Made by a program: the position numbers and the translations under genes
From: Acaryochloris marina S15
GTDB lineage: Bacteria > Cyanobacteriota > Cyanobacteriia > Thermosynechococcales > Thermosynechococcaceae
Direction of reading: 5' to 3'
Length of the DNA: 32,000 bases
Assembly (NCBI RefSeq): GCF_018336915.1
Contig: NZ_CP064923.1
Coordinates: 720,001-752,000 of the forward strand
Part shown: positions 25,194 through 32,000 of the stretch, one piece after another
Position numbering within the stretch: the first letter of the stretch is position 1
Layout of the letters: each line of letters begins with the position of its first letter
Notes under the pieces: model-generated
Seen by the model: the letters and a program-made list of their open reading frames with translations, nothing else
Database searches by the model: none
Told to the model about the DNA's origin: nothing

Positions 25194-25354
25194 CTGCTTT
25201 GCTCCGATGGGGATTGCTCAAGCCCACTGCCATTATCGAGATTTGCTCCCCAGACATCAATGGGTAGGTCATCTCTTAACGAATTGATCACCAAAAACTG
25301 GCCGATATCAACCCAGGGGAAGTACGGCACAACTATTACGAATATGATATTCAG

Positions 25355-25428
25355 GGCGGATGATGGGAATCGAACCCACGAATGGTGGAACCACAATCCA
25401 CTGCCGTAACCACTTGGCTACACCCGCC
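25355..25428 (-). tRNA. tRNA-His (anticodon GTG) with encoded G-1
   Basis: Minus strand reads GGCGGGTGTAGCCAAGTGGTTACGGCAGTGGATTGTGGTTCCACCATTCGTGGGTTCGATTCCCATCATCCGCC. The anticodon loop is TT-GTG-GT, and an extra 5' G pairs with C73. Confidence 0.95.
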
Positions 25429-26096: not shown

Positions 26097-26157
26097 TTAG
26101 GGTAAGCATCTGTGGCAAGCCTTACTTCATAAGGCTTGCCACAGATGCTTACCCTAA
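26097..26157. repeat. 28-bp perfect inverted repeat (hairpin, 5-nt loop) at the core/accessory boundary
   Basis: 26097-26124 (TTAGGGTAAGCATCTGTGGCAAGCCTTA) pairs without mismatch with 26130-26157. The loop is CTTCA. It starts 24 nt after the LRR gene stop. There is no U-tract on the plus strand. Confidence 0.9.
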
Positions 26158-26622
26158 AATTAGGTCTTGACGATGCACTAGTTTGCCTTGCTCTGTTATG
26201 CTTGCCGCTTGATGGATAAAGTCTTAGTTATGTCATTCTTGCCTGAGTTTTAATGCAGTTGGGGCTATATCATTTGTTTCAACTCAGTCAATTATGGTTC
26301 CTCCTGTAACCTATGTAGCTATTAAGCTTGACTGGCCTAAAGATAGTCGCAGATTTAGGCCTTAACTCATTCCAAGCTATAAGTAAATCCGAAATAATTT
26401 AGAGATATACCTTATGTAAATATAATTTATGCCAAGTTGGCAACATTAGATTCTTTTTCCTCTTTATAGTGATTTATGTAAACGAGCAAAAAGGGTTCTT
26501 TCTTTCCTGCTTGAAAGTCATTTAAAACTGTTGGAATGTTGTTTGTGTTGAATTAGTCATAAGGCTTTTTGATCGCAATATGAATAGTTTTAAGGTTTTG
26601 ATTGGGTTTGTGGAATAGCCTG

Positions 26623-26640
26623 TGCAAATTTATATTTGCA
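26623..26640 (+). promoter_or_regulatory. Operator-like palindrome TGCAAAT-N4-ATTTGCA upstream of the peptide gene
   Basis: 7-bp arms with a 4-bp AT spacer, 35 nt upstream of ATG 26675. It contains a -10-like TATATT. An AAGGA Shine-Dalgarno-like element lies at 26666-26670. Confidence 0.3.
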
Positions 26641-26674
26641 AACAGTAACAGCTCATTAATTACACAAGGAATAA

Positions 26675-26974
26675 ATGATGATTATCTCTGATTTAAATCA
26701 CTTAGAAGTTTTGGATTCAGGTCTAGAAGAAGTCACTGGTGGTTGGGGATACTATATTCCCGTTCCTTCTCATCTTCCTGTGAGTGGCGGTATCAACTTT
26801 AATGTTAATGTTAACGTTTCGAAAAACTTTGTGAAACTTAAGGGCAATCAAGCTACTGGTGCTTTTAATGCTAGTGCTAAAGGCTCCAATACATTAACGG
26901 ATGGATATGTTAACGTATCTACGACTTCTCATAGCTCGAATTCTTCAGGTGGTGCTATTGCACAATCAGCTTAA
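26675..26974 (+). CDS. Double-glycine-leader precursor peptide (23-aa leader plus 76-aa N/S/T/G/A-rich cationic core)
   Basis: The protein begins MMIISDLNHLEVLDSGLEEVTGG|WGYY. There is a GG at -2/-1, with hydrophobic residues at -4 (V), -7 (L) and -12 (V) and acidic residues at -5/-6. AAGGA lies upstream, a stable hairpin lies downstream, and an HlyB/PCAT-family exporter is in the same locus. Confidence 0.7.
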   Translation: MMIISDLNHLEVLDSGLEEVTGGWGYYIPVPSHLPVSGGINFNVNVNVSKNFVKLKGNQATGAFNASAKGSNTLTDGYVNVSTTSHSSNSSGGAIAQSA

Positions 26975-27022
26975 ATCAAAGTTTTTTAAAAGCTCTGATT
27001 TTTTCAGAAATCTGTGAAATGT

Positions 27023-27060
27023 GTTACTGGGAGTAAGGCTCATTCCTTACTCCCAGTAAC
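27023..27060 (+). terminator. Stable stem-loop 3' of the precursor gene (terminator/attenuator or mRNA stabiliser)
   Basis: Perfect 16-bp stem GTTACTGGGAGTAAGG (27023-27038) / CCTTACTCCCAGTAAC (27045-27060) with a 6-nt loop, 49 nt after the stop. No U-tract follows. Confidence 0.5.
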
Positions 27061-27226
27061 GCGTCTATGAGCAACTATTAATAGAAGATTTAAAAGAATC
27101 TTTTGTCCTCTTAGTTAAGAGTTCACTTTGCTTAAATATTTTGTAATAAAATATCTGAATTGGTTTTAAATTATTTAAGACTTATTATAAAAAATGTACA
27201 AAATTAGAGTCAGATAATTGCGGCAA

Positions 27227-27469
27227 ATGATCAAAAAAAATTCTAGATGCGCTAGTAGTTCTTCTGCTTTAGCTTATTCATCTACTAAGACCCAAAGTGC
27301 TTATGGTAAGTCTTCTGCTACAACTATTTCTTCTATGGGAGAAAGTGAAAGTAGCAGTACTGAAGTCTTTAGTTTGAATGCCAAAGCCATTAGTGCAAAG
27401 GCATCTTCTAAGTCAACACAGAATAATTCACCTTGTGTCAATACTCAAGTGGATATTTCATTTCCATAA
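27227..27469 (+). CDS. Possible leaderless Ser/Ala/Thr/Lys-rich small protein (80 aa from ATG 27227)
   Basis: The ORF is open from TTG 27218. Its composition (ASSSSALAYSSTKTQSAYGKSSATTISS...NAKAISAKASSKST) resembles the core of the upstream peptide (ATGAFNASAKGSNTLTDGYVNVSTTSHSS). It has no GG leader and no clear RBS. It is low-complexity and sits in AT-rich DNA. Confidence 0.3.
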   Translation: MIKKNSRCASSSSALAYSSTKTQSAYGKSSATTISSMGESESSSTEVFSLNAKAISAKASSKSTQNNSPCVNTQVDISFP

Positions 27470-27857
27470 ATTTTTTCTGAAAATTTTTCAAGAATAGATA
27501 GATTGCTAAAATGTTTGAGATCTAATCTTTGGATATAAATTGTTTTATCCTGTTATTAGTTGGATTCTGAATTAAAAAATAATCGTTGTCTAAACTATGT
27601 CGTTCATGGCGATAAAAATCTGCACGAAATTTCGCAGTAAAATATTTCTATTGAAGATGTTGTTTTTGATCATAAAATATTTAAGAAAAAATAATTTTAC
27701 CTTATTGATCCTTAAGAAGAATGTATTTTGGAAGATAGTGAGCACTAGCTTGTTAGAAAGTTTTTGTATAGTGGTCTATAGTACATATGATTTTTTAAAA
27801 CTATCTCAATGCTTTTGGAAAGATATCTTGATACTATAAAATAATGCTTTAATAGCC

Positions 27858-29192
27858 ATGCAAAGACTAAACATCAGTAAAATTAAATTCACTAATCGTG
27901 CTGACAAAATAGCTCCAAATTCTACGATTTTTAATCCCAAGAATTCTATTGTTAAAACTCTAAAGGGAAGCGATTCACTTATAGGTAATTCTTTCCTTAA
28001 TGGTGATTTTGGATTCGGAGTTTTAGTTGGGGTTGGGGCGAAAAACTTTGGTTTGCTTGCGACTTCTACTGAGTTTCTAGTCAACTTTAAACTTCGTACT
28101 CAAGGAATTAATAATAAAGGTACGATTCAGACTAATAAAGGCAAGGATACAATCCAAGGTAACGCCTCAGCCAATTTGTCAGTTGCTACTAATTCGGTAG
28201 CAGAGGCGATAGCCGTTGCTCAATCTGTTGATACAAGCGTCATTACCCAAGTTTTGGCATCTCTTGATATTGAGGCTAATGTTATTGGTATCAATAATTC
28301 TAAGGCGACTATTCAGACTGGCCTTGGAAGTGATGCTATAGATGGTCAAACGGAGGGGAGTGTTTCTGCTACGGCAACCGCTTCAGCTAATGCATCAGCC
28401 ATTGTCGAAGCGATTGCTGGTGCCCCTATCTCTGATAAGTTAATCGCGTTTGCTAATGCTATTGCTACCAGTTTGACGACTGCTTCTATATCGGCCACTG
28501 GAATCAAAAATAGGAAAGGTTTGCTTGCAACTGGCAAAGGCAAAGATACGATTAGCGCTACTGCAAACACTCAATCTAGTACTTTTGCAGGTACGTCTAG
28601 TTCTGCTTTTTCTAGTGCACCTCCTGACAATCAAGCCTTAGCGTTGGCTGTTGCTGAGGCAGTTGCTGAAGCTTCTGATATTGCGATCGCAATCGATAAT
28701 ACAGGCGGAAAAATTACCACAGGGAATGGGGCTGATACGATTATTGCCACTGCGGAAGCGACTGGTAAAGCCTTTGGAATTATCAACACTGGTGGTGTGA
28801 TTAGTACTGGACAAGGGGCTGATCAGATTATTGTTCAGGCTACAGGGGAAGAAGCCTATGGTCTTTATGGTGGAAGAGTAAGTTTGGGTGCAGGAAAAGA
28901 TTCATTAACCGGTACCTTTGGTGGCGGTGTGGTTGTCAATGCAGGGAGAGGCAACGACTTTATTGATGGTAGTGCTGGTGATTTTGGGAACGCCACATTA
29001 AGAGGTGGAAGAGGTCAAGACACCCTTAGTCTTGCGAGTAGCCTTGCCGATTTTTCTGATATCAGTATTGGTGCAAATACTCAAGTTACATTCAATCTTG
29101 ACGGTATGACACTCGTTACTACGGGATTTGAAGAATATATTTTAGCTGGCGAAACTTATACCCTCGCTGGGCTTGCAAGCAATCTACCATAA
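27858..29192 (+). CDS. RTX-like repeat protein: nine GGxGxDxU-type motifs, the N-terminal ones isolated between Ala-rich spacers
   Basis: Motifs are TLKGSDSLI, TNKGKDTIQ, TGLGSDAID, TGKGKDTIS, TGNGADTII, TGQGADQII, LGAGKDSLT, AGRGNDFID and GGRGQDTLS. Five of them sit in an 18-aa unit I-x-N-x-x-G-x-I-x-T-G-x-G-x-D-x-I. There is no N-terminal signal peptide, and a non-repeat tail of about 55 aa follows. A HIP1 site lies at 28683-28690. Confidence 0.8.
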   Translation: MQRLNISKIKFTNRADKIAPNSTIFNPKNSIVKTLKGSDSLIGNSFLNGDFGFGVLVGVGAKNFGLLATSTEFLVNFKLRTQGINNKGTIQTNKGKDTIQGNASANLSVATNSVAEAIAVAQSVDTSVITQVLASLDIEANVIGINNSKATIQTGLGSDAIDGQTEGSVSATATASANASAIVEAIAGAPISDKLIAFANAIATSLTTASISATGIKNRKGLLATGKGKDTISATANTQSSTFAGTSSSAFSSAPPDNQALALAVAEAVAEASDIAIAIDNTGGKITTGNGADTIIATAEATGKAFGIINTGGVISTGQGADQIIVQATGEEAYGLYGGRVSLGAGKDSLTGTFGGGVVVNAGRGNDFIDGSAGDFGNATLRGGRGQDTLSLASSLADFSDISIGANTQVTFNLDGMTLVTTGFEEYILAGETYTLAGLASNLP

Positions 29193-29456
29193 TATTTCAA
29201 GCTAAATAGAGTAAGTGAGAACGCCAAAGATGTCGTTAGAAATGTCTTAGCCTCTTTTACTTATATTCTCTGCTAGTAATCTTTTAATCTATTTTGGATA
29301 ATTGGGTTTCAGCGTAACTGCCTATTCCTTTCAGATGGAAATACGGCAGAGCTTCCATTGATACTGGCGATAACTTAGTCATTGAATATCCTAGGGTGCT
29401 ATTATCAATGGCACCCTAAAATCTAGTTTTGGAGTTTGATGAATAACGCTTTCCAA

Positions 29457-29502
29457 AAATTCATATCAATCAAATAATGAGTTATTTGATTGATATGAAT
29501 TT
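29457..29502. repeat. 21-bp perfect AT-rich inverted repeat (hairpin, 4-nt loop)
   Basis: 29457-29477 (AAATTCATATCAATCAAATAA) pairs perfectly with 29482-29502. The loop is TGAG. It lies in the 549-nt gap between the repeat-protein gene and the parvulin-like gene. Confidence 0.85.
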
Positions 29503-29741
29503 CTTAAACTGGTTACTAAATATAGATTTCAGGTGATGATGCTTTCAGTAATCCTGAGAGAACTATCTTCTAATTCTTAAGCCCAAGAAAACTGATATTT
29601 GGATAGATTGGTACATGGTATAACCATGAGTAATTTAGCCTTACGCATGTTTGATAGCTATGAACAATTCTTATAAAGAAGATATATACTAGTATTTTGC
29701 AAAAAAATAGAAAAAATTTCTTATTTAATATCTCTTACTGA

Positions 29742-30491
29742 ATGATGAATATAGACTTTCACGGGATTTCAATTGAGATAGCTGAGGTGCTAGAAACACT
29801 CAGGCAAAATATGAGTCTAGTGGAGGTCTGCGAGCAAACTCTTAAACAAAAAATCATTCTTCAAACAGCTGATTCCCAAAATATTACTGTTACACCTGAG
29901 GAAATTCAAAATGAAGTAGATGAAATTCGCCGTAATAAGCATTTGGAGAAGGCATCTGATACAATGGCCTGGCTTAACGAGCAAATGGTTACTCCAGATG
30001 AGTGGGAAATTGCAATTCAGGGTCACTTGCTTACGAAAAAGTTGGCTACATATCTATTTGAAGAGAAAGTAGAATCTTACTTTGCTGAAAGGCGACTAAA
30101 TTTTGATCGTTTTGTAATTTATCAAATTAGTGTTGACTGTCAAAAATTTGCTCAAGAATTATTTTATCAAATTGAAGAAGAAGAAATTAGTTTTTATGAA
30201 GCAGCTCATCTTTATGATCTTGATGAAAGAGCTCGCTCTCTTTGCGGTTATACAGGTGAGACAAACCGCTTAAGTTTCTCTCCAGGTATTGCTGCAGCTA
30301 TTTTTCAAGATCCTTTACCAATAGGAGTTTTGCTAGGGCCAATTCAAACAGAAGAAGTGCATCATCTGGTAAGGATTGAAAAATATATACCTGCAGATTT
30401 AACACCCATTGTAAGGCAAGAAATTCTCGATAGCTTATTTGAAGAGTGGATTAGTAAAGAATTAAATTATATTATTAATATGCAACAATAA
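29742..30491 (+). CDS. SurA-N/parvulin-like (PpiC-type) protein, no signal peptide, probably catalytically degenerate
   Basis: The N-terminal chaperone-like region is QKIILQTADSQNITVTPEEIQNEVDEIRRNK. The C-terminal region follows the parvulin layout: FVIYQISV...AQELFYQIEEEEISFYEAAHLYDLD...GYTGE...FSPGIAAAIF...GPIQTEEVHHLVRIEK. The position of the usual first His (xSHIL) reads IYQIS. Confidence 0.65.
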   Translation: MMNIDFHGISIEIAEVLETLRQNMSLVEVCEQTLKQKIILQTADSQNITVTPEEIQNEVDEIRRNKHLEKASDTMAWLNEQMVTPDEWEIAIQGHLLTKKLATYLFEEKVESYFAERRLNFDRFVIYQISVDCQKFAQELFYQIEEEEISFYEAAHLYDLDERARSLCGYTGETNRLSFSPGIAAAIFQDPLPIGVLLGPIQTEEVHHLVRIEKYIPADLTPIVRQEILDSLFEEWISKELNYIINMQQ

Positions 30492-30538
30492 AAACATAAT
30501 GAATCACATAATCTAAAATACTAGAGCATTAAATATTT

Positions 30539-32000
30539 TTATAATTCTAATTGTTGCTGAGCTAAGTAGAAATAAAGTCCTTGTTGTTGAATTAACTCTT
30601 CATGAGTGCCTTTCTCAACGAGAATCCCTTTATCTAGAACAATGATACAGTCAGCGTTGCGTACTGTTGAAAGTCGATGGGCAATAATAAAAGTTGTCCG
30701 TTCTCGTGCTAAACGCTTTAAATTTTCTTGAAATCTTCGTTCTGATTCAGTGTCAAGAGAGCTGGTTGCCTCATCGAAGATTAGTATAGGTGGCTTCTCA
30801 AGTAAAGCTCTGGCAATTGCAATTCTTTGTCTTTGTCCCCCCGAAAGATTAGTACCCCATTCACCTACTTTGGTACTATATCCGAGAGGAAAAGCCTGAA
30901 TAAAAGCATGCGCTTCTGCAAGCTTAGCAGTGTCAATAGCTTGCTCTAGACTAAATTTGGGCTGGTGGAGTGTAATATTTTCTAGGATTGTTCCCGAGAA
31001 TAAAAAACACTCTTGTGGTACTACTCCTAGTTGGGAGCGGAGCGATTTAAGTGATAAATGGTTGAGATCGTGTCCATCAATCCAAATTTGACCACTGGTC
31101 GGTTGGTATAGACCTTGAAGTAATTTGACTAAAGTACTTTTTCCTGAGCCACTACGTCCAACTATTGCCAAAGTTTGTCCTTTCTTGACTTCAAAAGAGA
31201 TGTTTTGAAGAGCATTCCTCTCTTCTTCTGATTCGTAACGAAAACTGATATTATCAAATCGAATATTTCCTTCTATGTTTGGTAGAGCTGTAGAAGATTT
31301 TTGTGATTTCTCCTCAGGTTGGTAATCAAAGATATCATTTAACTTTTCGACGGAAATTAAAACTTCTTGCAATTCATCCCATAGCCCTACAAGTGTAATG
31401 AAAGGACTAATAACATGGCCTTTCATCATGCTAAAAGCAACATATTGACCTATGGTTAGTTGATCTTGGATGACTAAAGTAGCCCCGTACCAAAGTAAAG
31501 CTGTTCCACCAATCGTATTAATTAAGCCACTGAGCACTCCTAAGTGAATGGCAAGTTTTTGGCCTTTGAATTGTATATTGAGCTGATGGGTTAATTTATC
31601 TTCCCAACGCCAGCGGAATTCTTGTTCTACAGCGACAGATTTAACTGTGGATATACCCGATAGCATTTCGACTAACGTAGAGTTCTCATCTGCTGTAGCA
31701 TTAAACTCTTCACGAGAAATCTTACGAAGTAAAGGTGTTGAAACCAAGGTGAGAACTACAATAGGAGGGATAATGGCTAATACTAAAACTGTGAGCTGCC
31801 AGTTGTAGTAAAGCATCAAACATAGATAGATAATTCCAGTCACTAAATCTAGCCAAGATAGCAATACCTGCCCGATTAGGAATTGTTGAATCTTTTCATT
31901 TTCCTGAACCCGCGTAATGATGTCGCCTACTCTGCGCGATTCAAAAAATTTAATCGGTAAATTGAGAGTATGCCTAATCAAGCCGCTAATCAATGTTAGA
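30539..32000 (-). CDS. HlyB/PCAT-family type I secretion ABC exporter (TMD+NBD), 5' end outside the window
   Basis: IKFFESRRVGDIITRVQENEKIQQFLIGQ is colinear with the HlyB TMD motif as I recall it (YFESRRVGD...). Walker A is GRSGSGKST, the signature is LSGGQRQRIAIARAL, Walker B is ILIFDEATSSLD and the H-loop is IIAHRLSTV. The frame stays open to the window edge. Confidence 0.93.
   Translation of the reverse strand, partial: LTLISGLIRHTLNLPIKFFESRRVGDIITRVQENEKIQQFLIGQVLLSWLDLVTGIIYLCLMLYYNWQLTVLVLAIIPPIVVLTLVSTPLLRKISREEFNATADENSTLVEMLSGISTVKSVAVEQEFRWRWEDKLTHQLNIQFKGQKLAIHLGVLSGLINTIGGTALLWYGATLVIQDQLTIGQYVAFSMMKGHVISPFITLVGLWDELQEVLISVEKLNDIFDYQPEEKSQKSSTALPNIEGNIRFDNISFRYESEEERNALQNISFEVKKGQTLAIVGRSGSGKSTLVKLLQGLYQPTSGQIWIDGHDLNHLSLKSLRSQLGVVPQECFLFSGTILENITLHQPKFSLEQAIDTAKLAEAHAFIQAFPLGYSTKVGEWGTNLSGGQRQRIAIARALLEKPPILIFDEATSSLDTESERRFQENLKRLARERTTFIIAHRLSTVRNADCIIVLDKGILVEKGTHEELIQQQGLYFYLAQQQLEL

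Follow-up and report, generated by a model that had tools for sequence, protein, structure and literature searches.

A probable long-type peptidase-containing ABC exporter cluster for a double-glycine peptide in Acaryochloris marina S15

The right end of the 32,000-nucleotide stretch of Acaryochloris marina S15 DNA analysed here (assembly GCF_018336915.1, contig NZ_CP064923.1, positions 720,001 to 752,000; hereafter the window) carries, at 26097–32000, genes for a small double-glycine peptide, a Ser-rich polypeptide, a 444-aa protein with RTX-like features, a 249-aa PrsA/SurA-like protein and, on the opposite strand, the C-terminal part of an ATP-binding cassette (ABC) exporter. Considering the evidence below, we think it quite probable that the locus is a cyanobacterial type I secretion system of the "long type", in which a peptidase-containing ABC transporter (PCAT) exports the double-glycine peptide. 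The window holds the left half of a low-G+C cluster of about 12 kb that is conserved across Acaryochloris, and the locus is a further case of a catalogued, widely distributed cluster type. A preliminary description, made from the letters of the window, had already read the locus as one of type I secretion with a double-glycine peptide among its cargo, and the leader of the peptide, the C39 peptidase domain of the exporter and an adjacent HlyD-type gene all support this view.

The exporter and its double-glycine peptide

The window was extended to the right by means of three contigs that contain the exact 249-aa protein and overlap the window with 94–100% protein identity, and the domains of the exporter were read on one of them, L002, the overlap of which is 98–100% identical. 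ABC_membrane and ABC_tran were found in the window fragment and in the full-length exporter alike. The complete protein scored 29.5 bits with Pfam cNMP_binding (cut-off 27.5; residues 71–141), 132.8 bits with Peptidase_C39, 166 bits with ABC_membrane and 136 bits with ABC_tran. Its C39 domain aligned over the full length with the peptidase of PCAT1 (4ry2; C21A variant 7n87), and the columns of the catalytic Cys21, His99 and Asp115 are conserved. Judged by its sequence, the exporter appears to be a PCAT that unites an intact C39 peptidase, six-helix membrane domains and an ATPase in one chain. The order of the domains, with an N-terminal cyclic-nucleotide-binding domain followed by the C39 peptidase and the ABC domains, is that of HetC, and by this architecture the exporter can be placed in the HetC class. 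An upstream ATG would lengthen the protein to 1069 aa (L002 4388–7597), overlapping the end of the HetP-like gene by 31 nt, and the gene callers were split between 1049 and 1069 aa across the contigs.

The HetP-like and HlyD-type genes lie 1.5–4 kb past the window, directly upstream of the exporter and on the same strand. The preliminary description had staked its reading on a C39-type domain just off the window, and such a domain, active-looking and with its Cys, His and Asp residues in place, is indeed present there together with a membrane-fusion protein of the HlyD family; no second exporter was met in the extension. The reported absence of a membrane-fusion protein was an artefact of the window edge, as the HlyD-type gene is situated just outside.

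The leader of the peptide reads MMIISDLNHLEVLDSGLEEVTGG in the 99-aa form and MIISDLNHLEVLDSGLEEVTGG in the 98-aa form that begins at the second ATG. With Gly-Gly at −2/−1 and hydrophobic residues at −4, −7 and −12 it shows the canonical pattern, and the predicted cut falls behind VTGG, before a W. The core comprises 76 aa, is rich in Ser, Asn, Gly, Val and Ala and is Cys-free. NCBIfam and Pfam gave no meaningful match for the window peptide, nor did NCBIfam for ten related peptides, and a phmmer search against 1.84 billion representatives returned 7 matches, a number that is uninformative on family size with so short and low-complexity a query.

A profile of the leader was built from regular-expression matches, the leader being defined as MIISDLxxLE(9–12 residues)GG, and the window peptide matched it at E = 1.7e-7. 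The leader family comprises 110 open reading frames (ORFs) in 57 of the 80 cyanobacterial loci that were collected around the PrsA/SurA-like gene; of these ORFs, 80 are located within 3 kb of that gene and 90 share its strand. Tandem arrays contain up to eight such peptides. Eight tandem MIISDL-leader genes occur in Oscillatoria PCC 10802 (L070 3995–8196), several of them with Gly-Ala replacing Gly-Gly at the predicted cut. A loose AxAxAxAxG..T.T motif is common to the cores, which diverge fast across the family. Comparison of three Acaryochloris lineages shows a conserved leader and a core that can hardly be aligned.

The same motif recurs in the HetP-like protein. Besides the conserved HetP core, GKYSWACVLMLRF.GYNPLHYIPYRTYNRL, it has a DLxYLE-x10-GG motif near its C-terminus, where the sequence runs YLQDLEYLEDVRETSRQVTGG and then GSNNWL, with the D-L and G-G positions in register with the peptide leader. 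A semi-conserved tail, GGxxxxW(L), follows the leader-like motif. The C-termini of HetP-like proteins, here and elsewhere, match the leader profile at E of about 3e-4. HetP-like proteins with the motif KIxDLxYLEx10GG had been noticed beside group II clusters by Wang, Fewer and Sivonen (2011, PLoS One; PMC3140520), and the shared leader motif extends that observation: the match in motif and register suggests possible docking of HetP-family proteins on the C39 domain, or their cleavage by it.

Table 1. Features of the locus and its borders; coordinates refer to the window unless contig L002 is named
Feature	Position	Strand	Source or remark
tRNA-His(GTG)	25354-25427	-	ARAGORN and Rfam; left boundary of the low-G+C island
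Leucine-rich-repeat (LRR) gene, 184 aa	25519-26073	+	Pfam LRR_4, E = 1.4e-21
Hairpin 1	26097-26157	no strand	perfect 28-bp inverted repeat, 5-nt loop, -52.4 kcal/mol, z = -13
Double-glycine peptide gene	26675/26678-26974	+	ORF list; 99 aa, or 98 aa from the second ATG (gene callers' start)
Hairpin 2	27019-27064	+	20-bp stem, -33.7 kcal/mol, z = -8.6
Ser-rich ORF, 80 aa	27218/27227-27469	+	ORF list
444-aa protein gene	27858-29192	+	ORF list
Hairpin 3	29457-29502	no strand	21-bp AT-rich stem, z = -7.2
PrsA/SurA-like protein gene, 249 aa	29742-30491	+	ORF list
ABC exporter, C-terminal 486 aa (membrane domain and ATPase)	30539-32000	-	convergent; runs past the window end
Exporter, 1049 aa	L002 4388-7537	-	full-length version of the gene at the window end
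HetP-like gene, 138 aa	L002 7567-7983	-	precomputed PF28069 HetP annotation
HlyD-type membrane-fusion gene, 528 aa	L002 8372-9958	-	HlyD_3 77.6 bits

The PrsA/SurA-like partner, conservation of the cluster and known systems

The 249-aa protein has 473 homologs. It exceeded the Pfam cut-off for Rotamase narrowly (22.3 bits against 21.7) and stayed below that for SurA_N_3 (23.9 bits against 27.2), and a profile search of the PDB gave weak matches to SurA and PrsA. In its AlphaFold2 model (predicted local distance difference test, pLDDT, 68.6) the helical chaperone module is confident and the parvulin part weak; Foldseek placed PrsA, Cj1289 and SurA best, with E = 5.8e-5 for PrsA. We concluded that the protein consists of a helical chaperone module and a divergent parvulin module, and that the exporter cluster has in it a conserved partner. 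Reading of the sequences showed no hydrophobic signal segment in its N-terminus, MMNIDFHGISIEIAEVLETLRQ, or in those of the other members of the family alignment (A1); the protein should therefore be cytoplasmic. In lacking a signal peptide or lipobox, again by reading the sequence, it differs from the SurA and PrsA parvulin chaperones. The signal-less SurA/parvulin-like protein of the preliminary description is supported in the form of a signal-less SurA/PrsA-like protein.

The 80 loci were searched by tblastn with the proteins of the window, and 43 of them had at least 8 kb on both sides of the PrsA/SurA-like gene. Among these 43 full-flank loci a HetP-like gene was present in 32, a long exporter in 27, an HlyD gene in 21 and all three in 17. 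Hosts in which exporter, HetP-like and HlyD genes stand beside the SurA-like gene include, in the whole set, Pleurocapsales, Oscillatoriales, Nostocales, Crocosphaera and others. The arrangement varies: Geitlerinema PCC 7407 has exporter, HlyD and HetP genes, an IS605 insertion, three small ORFs (two with the leader), a HemolysinCabind protein, the SurA-like gene and an ATP-grasp gene, and this module recurs with two SurA-like genes in Nostoc NIES-2111. The co-occurrence of these genes in other cyanobacteria, on which the preliminary description had made its idea depend, thus holds in many genomes.

Within the genus the whole region is conserved. In a homolog scan with one genome per species, made with the profile of the 249-aa family (A1), the closest named genome was that of A. 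marina MBIC11017 (81% identity), and the window is syntenic with this strain (L006) and with a third lineage (L005). The left flank common to the three lineages consists of a citrate synthase gene (95–96% identical), an aldo-keto reductase gene and the tRNA-His gene, the copies of which in the two other lineages are 96% identical and identically placed; the right flank common to Acaryochloris lineages is formed by an alpha/beta-hydrolase gene and a DUF5682 gene. Synteny in three lineages indicates that the island is old within the genus, and a recent horizontal transfer, which its low G+C content and its position next to a tRNA gene could have suggested, was rejected on the same grounds and as there is no integrase. 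The LRR gene between tRNA-His and the island is present in the lineage of the window (L001) and absent from that place in L005 and in MBIC11017; it is a strain-specific insertion outside the conserved system. In L005 (8061–9404 and 14738–16277) the 444-aa homolog is split into ORFs of 166 and 239 aa and the HlyD homolog into ORFs of 128 and 332 aa, owing either to gene decay or to an assembly error.

The preliminary description did not recognize the gene combination as a characterised system; the cluster type had, however, been catalogued. Wang et al. (2011; PMC3140520) defined groups I and II by clusters of a long-type C39 ABC transporter (with a CAP_ED/cNMP domain), HlyD and SurA, and classed them as bacteriocin clusters. 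Long-type ABC transporter, HlyD, SurA-like rotamase, HetP-like protein with DLxYLEx10GG and double-glycine precursors are all present at our locus. Moreover, AM1_4010 (CP000828 4058552–4058971) appears in their Table S3 as a group I "precursor" of the HetP family, and its coordinates coincide with the HetP-like gene on L006 (syntenic, 84% identical), so that the ortholog of the present locus is already on record. As the sole "precursor" of that cluster the table names the HetP-like protein; it has no entry for the Ser-rich ORF, the 444-aa protein or the MIISDL-leader peptide.

HetC has 1044 residues, compared with 1049 in the exporter described here. The HetC-HetP(-PatC) system of Nostoc/Anabaena PCC 7120 shares with our cluster the combination of cNMP domain, active C39 and ABC domains, and the HetP-family neighbour (PMC10986499, PMC4133259). 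HetC's N-terminal portion has cysteine-protease activity, the catalytic residues and the ATPase are required for heterocyst formation, and the nucleotide-binding domain binds ppGpp in vitro (PMC10986499). The substrate has been unknown since 1997, and according to the same study of 2024 there is neither a double-glycine gene nor a membrane-fusion gene near hetC (PMC10986499), whereas both are present here. The gene order differs too, being HlyD, HetP-like and exporter here, but hetC and then hetP in Anabaena.

Published hetC and hetP primers matched four Nostocales loci (L069, L074, L080 and L083) at the expected genes and did not match the Acaryochloris exporter. In the primer-matched loci the SurA-like gene follows 450–1200 nt downstream of hetP. 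No PatC-like 84-aa ORF was seen between hetP and the PrsA/SurA-like gene in Cylindrospermum or Stigonema. Anabaena alr2820, the gene downstream of hetC-hetP-patC, was considered as a candidate for the PrsA/SurA-like gene; its primer-derived peptide (NLDWLLL followed by a stop) is absent from the Nostoc SurA-like homologs, and the homolog of NIES-2111 belongs to a paralogous cluster. In Scytonema NIES-4073 an ORF of 332 aa (L061 7532–8530) is located between the HetC-like exporter and hetP. By reading, its sequence looks like a truncated, degenerate HlyD; if it is one, this may explain why a membrane-fusion gene near hetC has gone unrecognized.

Two further systems were compared. In the PteB/EbfG1–4 system of Synechococcus elongatus PCC 7942, as at our locus, small double-glycine peptides adjoin a C39 ABC transporter and HlyD; secretion there needs the catalytic Cys, and the products form matrix or amyloid and are not antibiotics (PMC4997328, PMC9981879). 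PteB differs from our exporter in that its best Anabaena homologs are of the short type and of group III (for instance Alr5147, beside the HlyD gene alr5148, the group III example of Wang et al.), and no SurA-like or HetP-like partner is described in that system. The second is MirC of an actinobacterial graspetide cluster (rosaritide; PMC13097080, 2026), a TIGR04500 protein; the graspetide synthetase requires its SurA-like chaperone domain as a partner, and the cluster also has a PCAT. A cytoplasmic SurA-like protein in a peptide cluster with a PCAT is what the two loci share, and the 249-aa protein aligned to the SurA-like part of TIGR04500 (PpiC_rel_mature, the MirC family), at profile positions 93–327 only and with 61.4 bits against a cut-off of 180. 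Unlike MirC it has no RRE-like N-terminal domain, and the island encodes no ATP-grasp enzyme. By analogy with MirC a holdase or delivery role can reasonably be proposed for the 249-aa protein. In Geitlerinema PCC 7407 (L004 10805–11707) an MvdD-like ATP-grasp gene comes right after the SurA-like gene, an arrangement that echoes the MirB-MirC pairing of graspetide clusters.

The 444-aa protein, the spacers and the limits of the island

The 444-aa protein has 92 homologs of about 300–620 aa, most of them about 440 aa long, all annotated as hypothetical. A conserved N-terminus, MxxLNLSKVxFTNxAD, and a conserved C-terminus characterise the family, and the variation in length reflects the copy number of a 29-aa unit. 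The AlphaFold2 model (pLDDT 86.5; predicted template modelling score, pTM, 0.86) shows AxAxA-type segments folded into four hairpins, the strands of which are about 20 residues long and which are set apart by TGxGxDxI turns, and a C-terminal RTX-like beta-roll of about 150 aa. Foldseek gave RTX domains as the best matches (CyaA block V and an Aeromonas RTX-like domain; about 150–180 aligned columns, confined to the C-terminal third, E of at least 1.6e-3) and no close PDB match for the N-terminal 300 aa or so with the long beta-hairpins. The preliminary description had called the protein RTX-like. This holds in part only: a beta-roll is predicted for the C-terminal part, but the Pfam HemolysinCabind model (PF00353) reached only 17.5 bits against a cut-off of 23, no stretch passing alone, and the motif is TGxGxDxIxA at a spacing of 29–60 residues and not a run of tandem GGxGxDxUx nonapeptides. 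True HemolysinCabind repeats are fused to one family member, P0208, for which alone a precomputed Pfam domain is on record. As in cargo of the HlyB-HlyD-TolC type, the C-terminal 150 aa or so contain GxGxDxI turns and an N-terminal signal is missing; the difference is that the only exporter of the island has an active C39 domain, while that of HlyB is an inactive C39-like domain. The alternating Ala/Ser/Thr/Asn composition that had been noticed in both the peptide core and the 444-aa protein proved real in a composition check.

The five genes previously placed at 26097–32000 were all found again in the ORF list at the positions of Table 1, and the long AT-rich spacers of 601, 243, 388 and 549 nt were recovered from the ORF coordinates. 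The least conspicuous of the five, the Ser-rich ORF, has 29% Ser, neither a leader nor a membrane-spanning segment, and no match in Pfam or NCBIfam. A frame of 75–80 codons is intact at the same position in L005 and L006, with about 63% nucleotide identity and indels that are all in-frame. Since the frame has been kept in three lineages despite the AT-rich DNA, the ORF is probably a real gene.

Long perfect hairpins had also been reported from the spacers, and three are borne out, far beyond chance. Hairpin 1 begins 24 nt past the stop of the LRR gene and is probably a bidirectional terminator or an insulator at the edge of the island; a second copy of its 28-bp arm was not present in the window. 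Two independent Logan assemblies (L002 and L003) stop inside this hairpin, which appears to break short-read assembly. Hairpin 3 occupies the 549-nt spacer between the 444-aa and PrsA/SurA-like genes. Rfam detected in the window two tRNAs only, plus sub-threshold matches to generic hairpins.

Hairpin 2 is located 45 nt past the stop codon of the peptide gene. Compared with its counterpart in L002 and L003 (L002 868–913) it shows a compensatory G>A/C>T pair in the arms, and its 6-nt loop is reverse-complemented between the sister strains (CTCATT vs AATGAG), meaning that the hairpin was inverted. In L006 a hairpin of different sequence lies at the matching place. Stable hairpins (−30 kcal/mol or lower) were found downstream of 49% of 116 leader-peptide ORFs as against 22% of random windows (p = 2e-7). 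This enrichment, together with the compensatory change and the inverted loop, fits a role at the transcript end or as an attenuator, and hairpin 2 is probably a stem that stabilises or attenuates the transcript and so raises the ratio of precursor to downstream transcript.

Over the first 25 kb of the window the G+C content is about 0.48; in the locus it is lower, at 0.27–0.45. The low-G+C island spans about 12 kb and ends on the right before the alpha/beta-hydrolase and DUF5682 genes; throughout this length no second exporter, modification enzyme or integrase was found. Between the start of the HlyD gene and the hydrolase gene there is a stretch of about 1.7 kb at 27–30% G+C with no ORF of at least 80 aa (L002 9958–11660, equivalent to about 36110–37810 of the window), which could accommodate a regulatory region or a small gene missed by annotation.

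Proposed route of export and competing explanations

In the long-type secretion system that we propose, the peptide would be made in excess, with the hairpin behind its gene stabilising or attenuating the transcript. The C39 domain would recognise the amphipathic leader, MIISDLNHLEVLDSGLEEVTGG, and cut after Gly-Gly, and the beta-prone core of 76 residues would then pass through the ABC/HlyD channel into a TolC-like outer-membrane duct encoded elsewhere. The PrsA/SurA-like protein would be a cytoplasmic partner of the unfolded cargo or of the exporter, acting as a holdase or in delivery, with MirC as its closest characterised analogue. Docking on the C39 domain, or being cut by it, the HetP-like protein could serve as a co-substrate or as a competitive regulator. 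The nucleotide-binding domain might gate export in response to a small nucleotide, as HetC binds ppGpp in vitro, and the 444-aa beta-hairpin/RTX-like protein would be a facultative companion. The output of the system is most likely either a beta-rich material outside the cell or on its surface, or a microcin-like peptide.

Several findings weigh against this scheme. At 11 of the 43 full-flank loci no gene of the exporter set lies closer than 10 kb to the PrsA/SurA-like gene, which makes the association a strong one, though not an obligatory one. An outer-membrane component is missing from the island. In the family alignment (A1) the column of the first catalytic His of the parvulin module is occupied by Tyr-Gln, and as the module is divergent, has this His replaced and is weakly modelled, isomerase activity of the 249-aa protein is doubtful. 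Finally, none of 21 sequences of the 444-aa family (alignment A2 and eight further members) has a double-glycine leader, and in four of five Nostocales contexts, namely in Calothrix, Scytonema, Gloeotrichia and Mastigocoleus, the homolog lies far from any such exporter. A double-glycine leader had been considered for the longer family members and was rejected, the extra length being additional 29-aa repeats.

These last observations bear on the view that the 444-aa protein is a mere neighbour that is functionally unconnected with the exporter and either leaves the cell by a different route or is not secreted, a view to which we give somewhat less than an even chance. The missing leader and the orphan contexts speak for it, and so does the presence of the gene at just about 6–8 of the 80 PrsA/SurA-like loci. 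On the other hand, the gene recurs beside long PCAT clusters in unrelated arrangements: in Acaryochloris, in Xenococcus PCC 7305 and a few other Pleurocapsales, and in Sphaerospermopsis, where exporter, HlyD and two leader peptides are followed by the 444-aa homolog and PrsA-like and HetP-like genes are missing. In Geitlerinema a HemolysinCabind protein takes the same slot. A precedent may exist in Synechocystis, where we take Sll1951 to be an RTX-type protein and Sll1180 a long-type exporter. The ABC/HlyD pair Sll1180/Sll1181 exports the S-layer protein Sll1951, according to a secondary citation of Agarwal (2018); sll1180/sll1181 were sought in the supplements of Wang et al. for their long-type status and were not found there. 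The linkage of the 444-aa gene to the exporter is thus recurrent but facultative, and the protein may leave the cell by a C-terminal signal or act outside together with the peptide. The preliminary description had puzzled over two classes of cargo for one exporter; that puzzle assumes the 444-aa protein to be cargo, and it is weakened since the protein has no double-glycine leader and is often, in Nostocales mostly, distant from the exporter.

A secreted structural system, the idea put forward in the preliminary description, would have the peptide assemble extracellularly into beta-rich fibres or a matrix, a process in which the 444-aa protein might be the anchor or nucleator. A matrix or fibre role is plausible by analogy with EbfG, and as an account of the entire locus we regard it as possible but rather doubtful. 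The cores of the peptide family share the alternating small-residue motif AxAxAxAxG..T.T, like segments of the 444-aa protein are confidently predicted to form beta-hairpins of 20 residues, and the two families co-occur in Acaryochloris, Xenococcus and Sphaerospermopsis. The double-glycine peptides EbfG1–3 do form amyloid fibrils (PMC9981879), and EbfG is the sole precedent (see also PMC12267927); however, it uses a short-type PCAT of a different cluster group. The 444-aa family is, moreover, often encoded away from peptide or exporter, and hypervariability of the core would be unusual for a structural subunit.

That same hypervariability is what a microcin-like bacteriocin would lead one to expect. 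Here the double-glycine peptide would be a toxin exported by the PCAT and the divergence of its core the trace of an arms race, the core being hypervariable among Acaryochloris strains while the leader and the neighbouring genes are conserved. The canonical leader, the PCAT and HlyD agree with this explanation. A Cys-free core of about 76 aa rich in Gly, Ser, Ala and Asn also resembles the class II microcins. Wang et al. file such clusters as bacteriocin clusters (PMC3140520), but none of the peptides from group I/II clusters is known to be antimicrobial, and the sole tested cyanobacterial double-glycine peptides, EbfG1–4, build biofilm matrix and do not kill. The ORF translations, when read through, yielded no small membrane protein of the immunity type in the window or on contig L002, that is, anywhere in the island. 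In addition, the cluster lies on the chromosome and its synteny extends across the genus. A bacteriocin is on balance unlikely.

Quite unlikely, in our judgement, is a signalling module of the kind proposed for HetC/HetP, in which the exporter would release a regulatory peptide from the double-glycine peptide or from the C-terminal tail of the HetP-like protein. The HetC architecture and the adjoining HetP-family gene favour it, as do the leader motif of the HetP-like protein with the semi-conserved GGxxxxW(L) tail behind it, and the PrsA/SurA-like gene downstream in the Nostocales loci matching the hetC/hetP primers. The nucleotide-sensing domain on the pump fits as well, HetC binding ppGpp (PMC10986499). 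Against it, mature cores of 50–90 residues in up to eight tandem copies have the look of a bulk product, and there are no receptor or two-component genes in the island. To our knowledge Acaryochloris is unicellular and has no heterocysts, and a heterocyst role cannot apply as such.

A more elaborate version of the proposed export scheme may be mentioned as a long shot: a curli-like, exporter-fed assembly in which the hairpins of the 444-aa protein, on their RTX-like base, would be a surface nucleator or anchor where the AxAxAxAxG peptides polymerise, the PrsA/SurA-like protein would be the cytoplasmic holdase, and the HetP-like protein, a leader mimic occupying the C39 domain or cut by it, would throttle export under control of the nucleotide domain. 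If this were true, the hetC-hetP pair of heterocyst formers would be a recruited derivative of the module, and the C-terminal Gly-Gly site of HetP would be the long-sought substrate site of HetC.

As the cluster type was already catalogued, the surprise is modest. The 444-aa family is unannotated and its fold is confidently modelled, which makes it worth a structure. With a HetC-class exporter beside clear double-glycine peptides, the cluster is a cleaner model than hetC itself. It raises the testable question of whether HetC-class pumps bind or cut HetP, and it draws attention to the cytoplasmic PrsA/SurA-like protein as a third conserved partner, one that heterocyst studies have left out of consideration.

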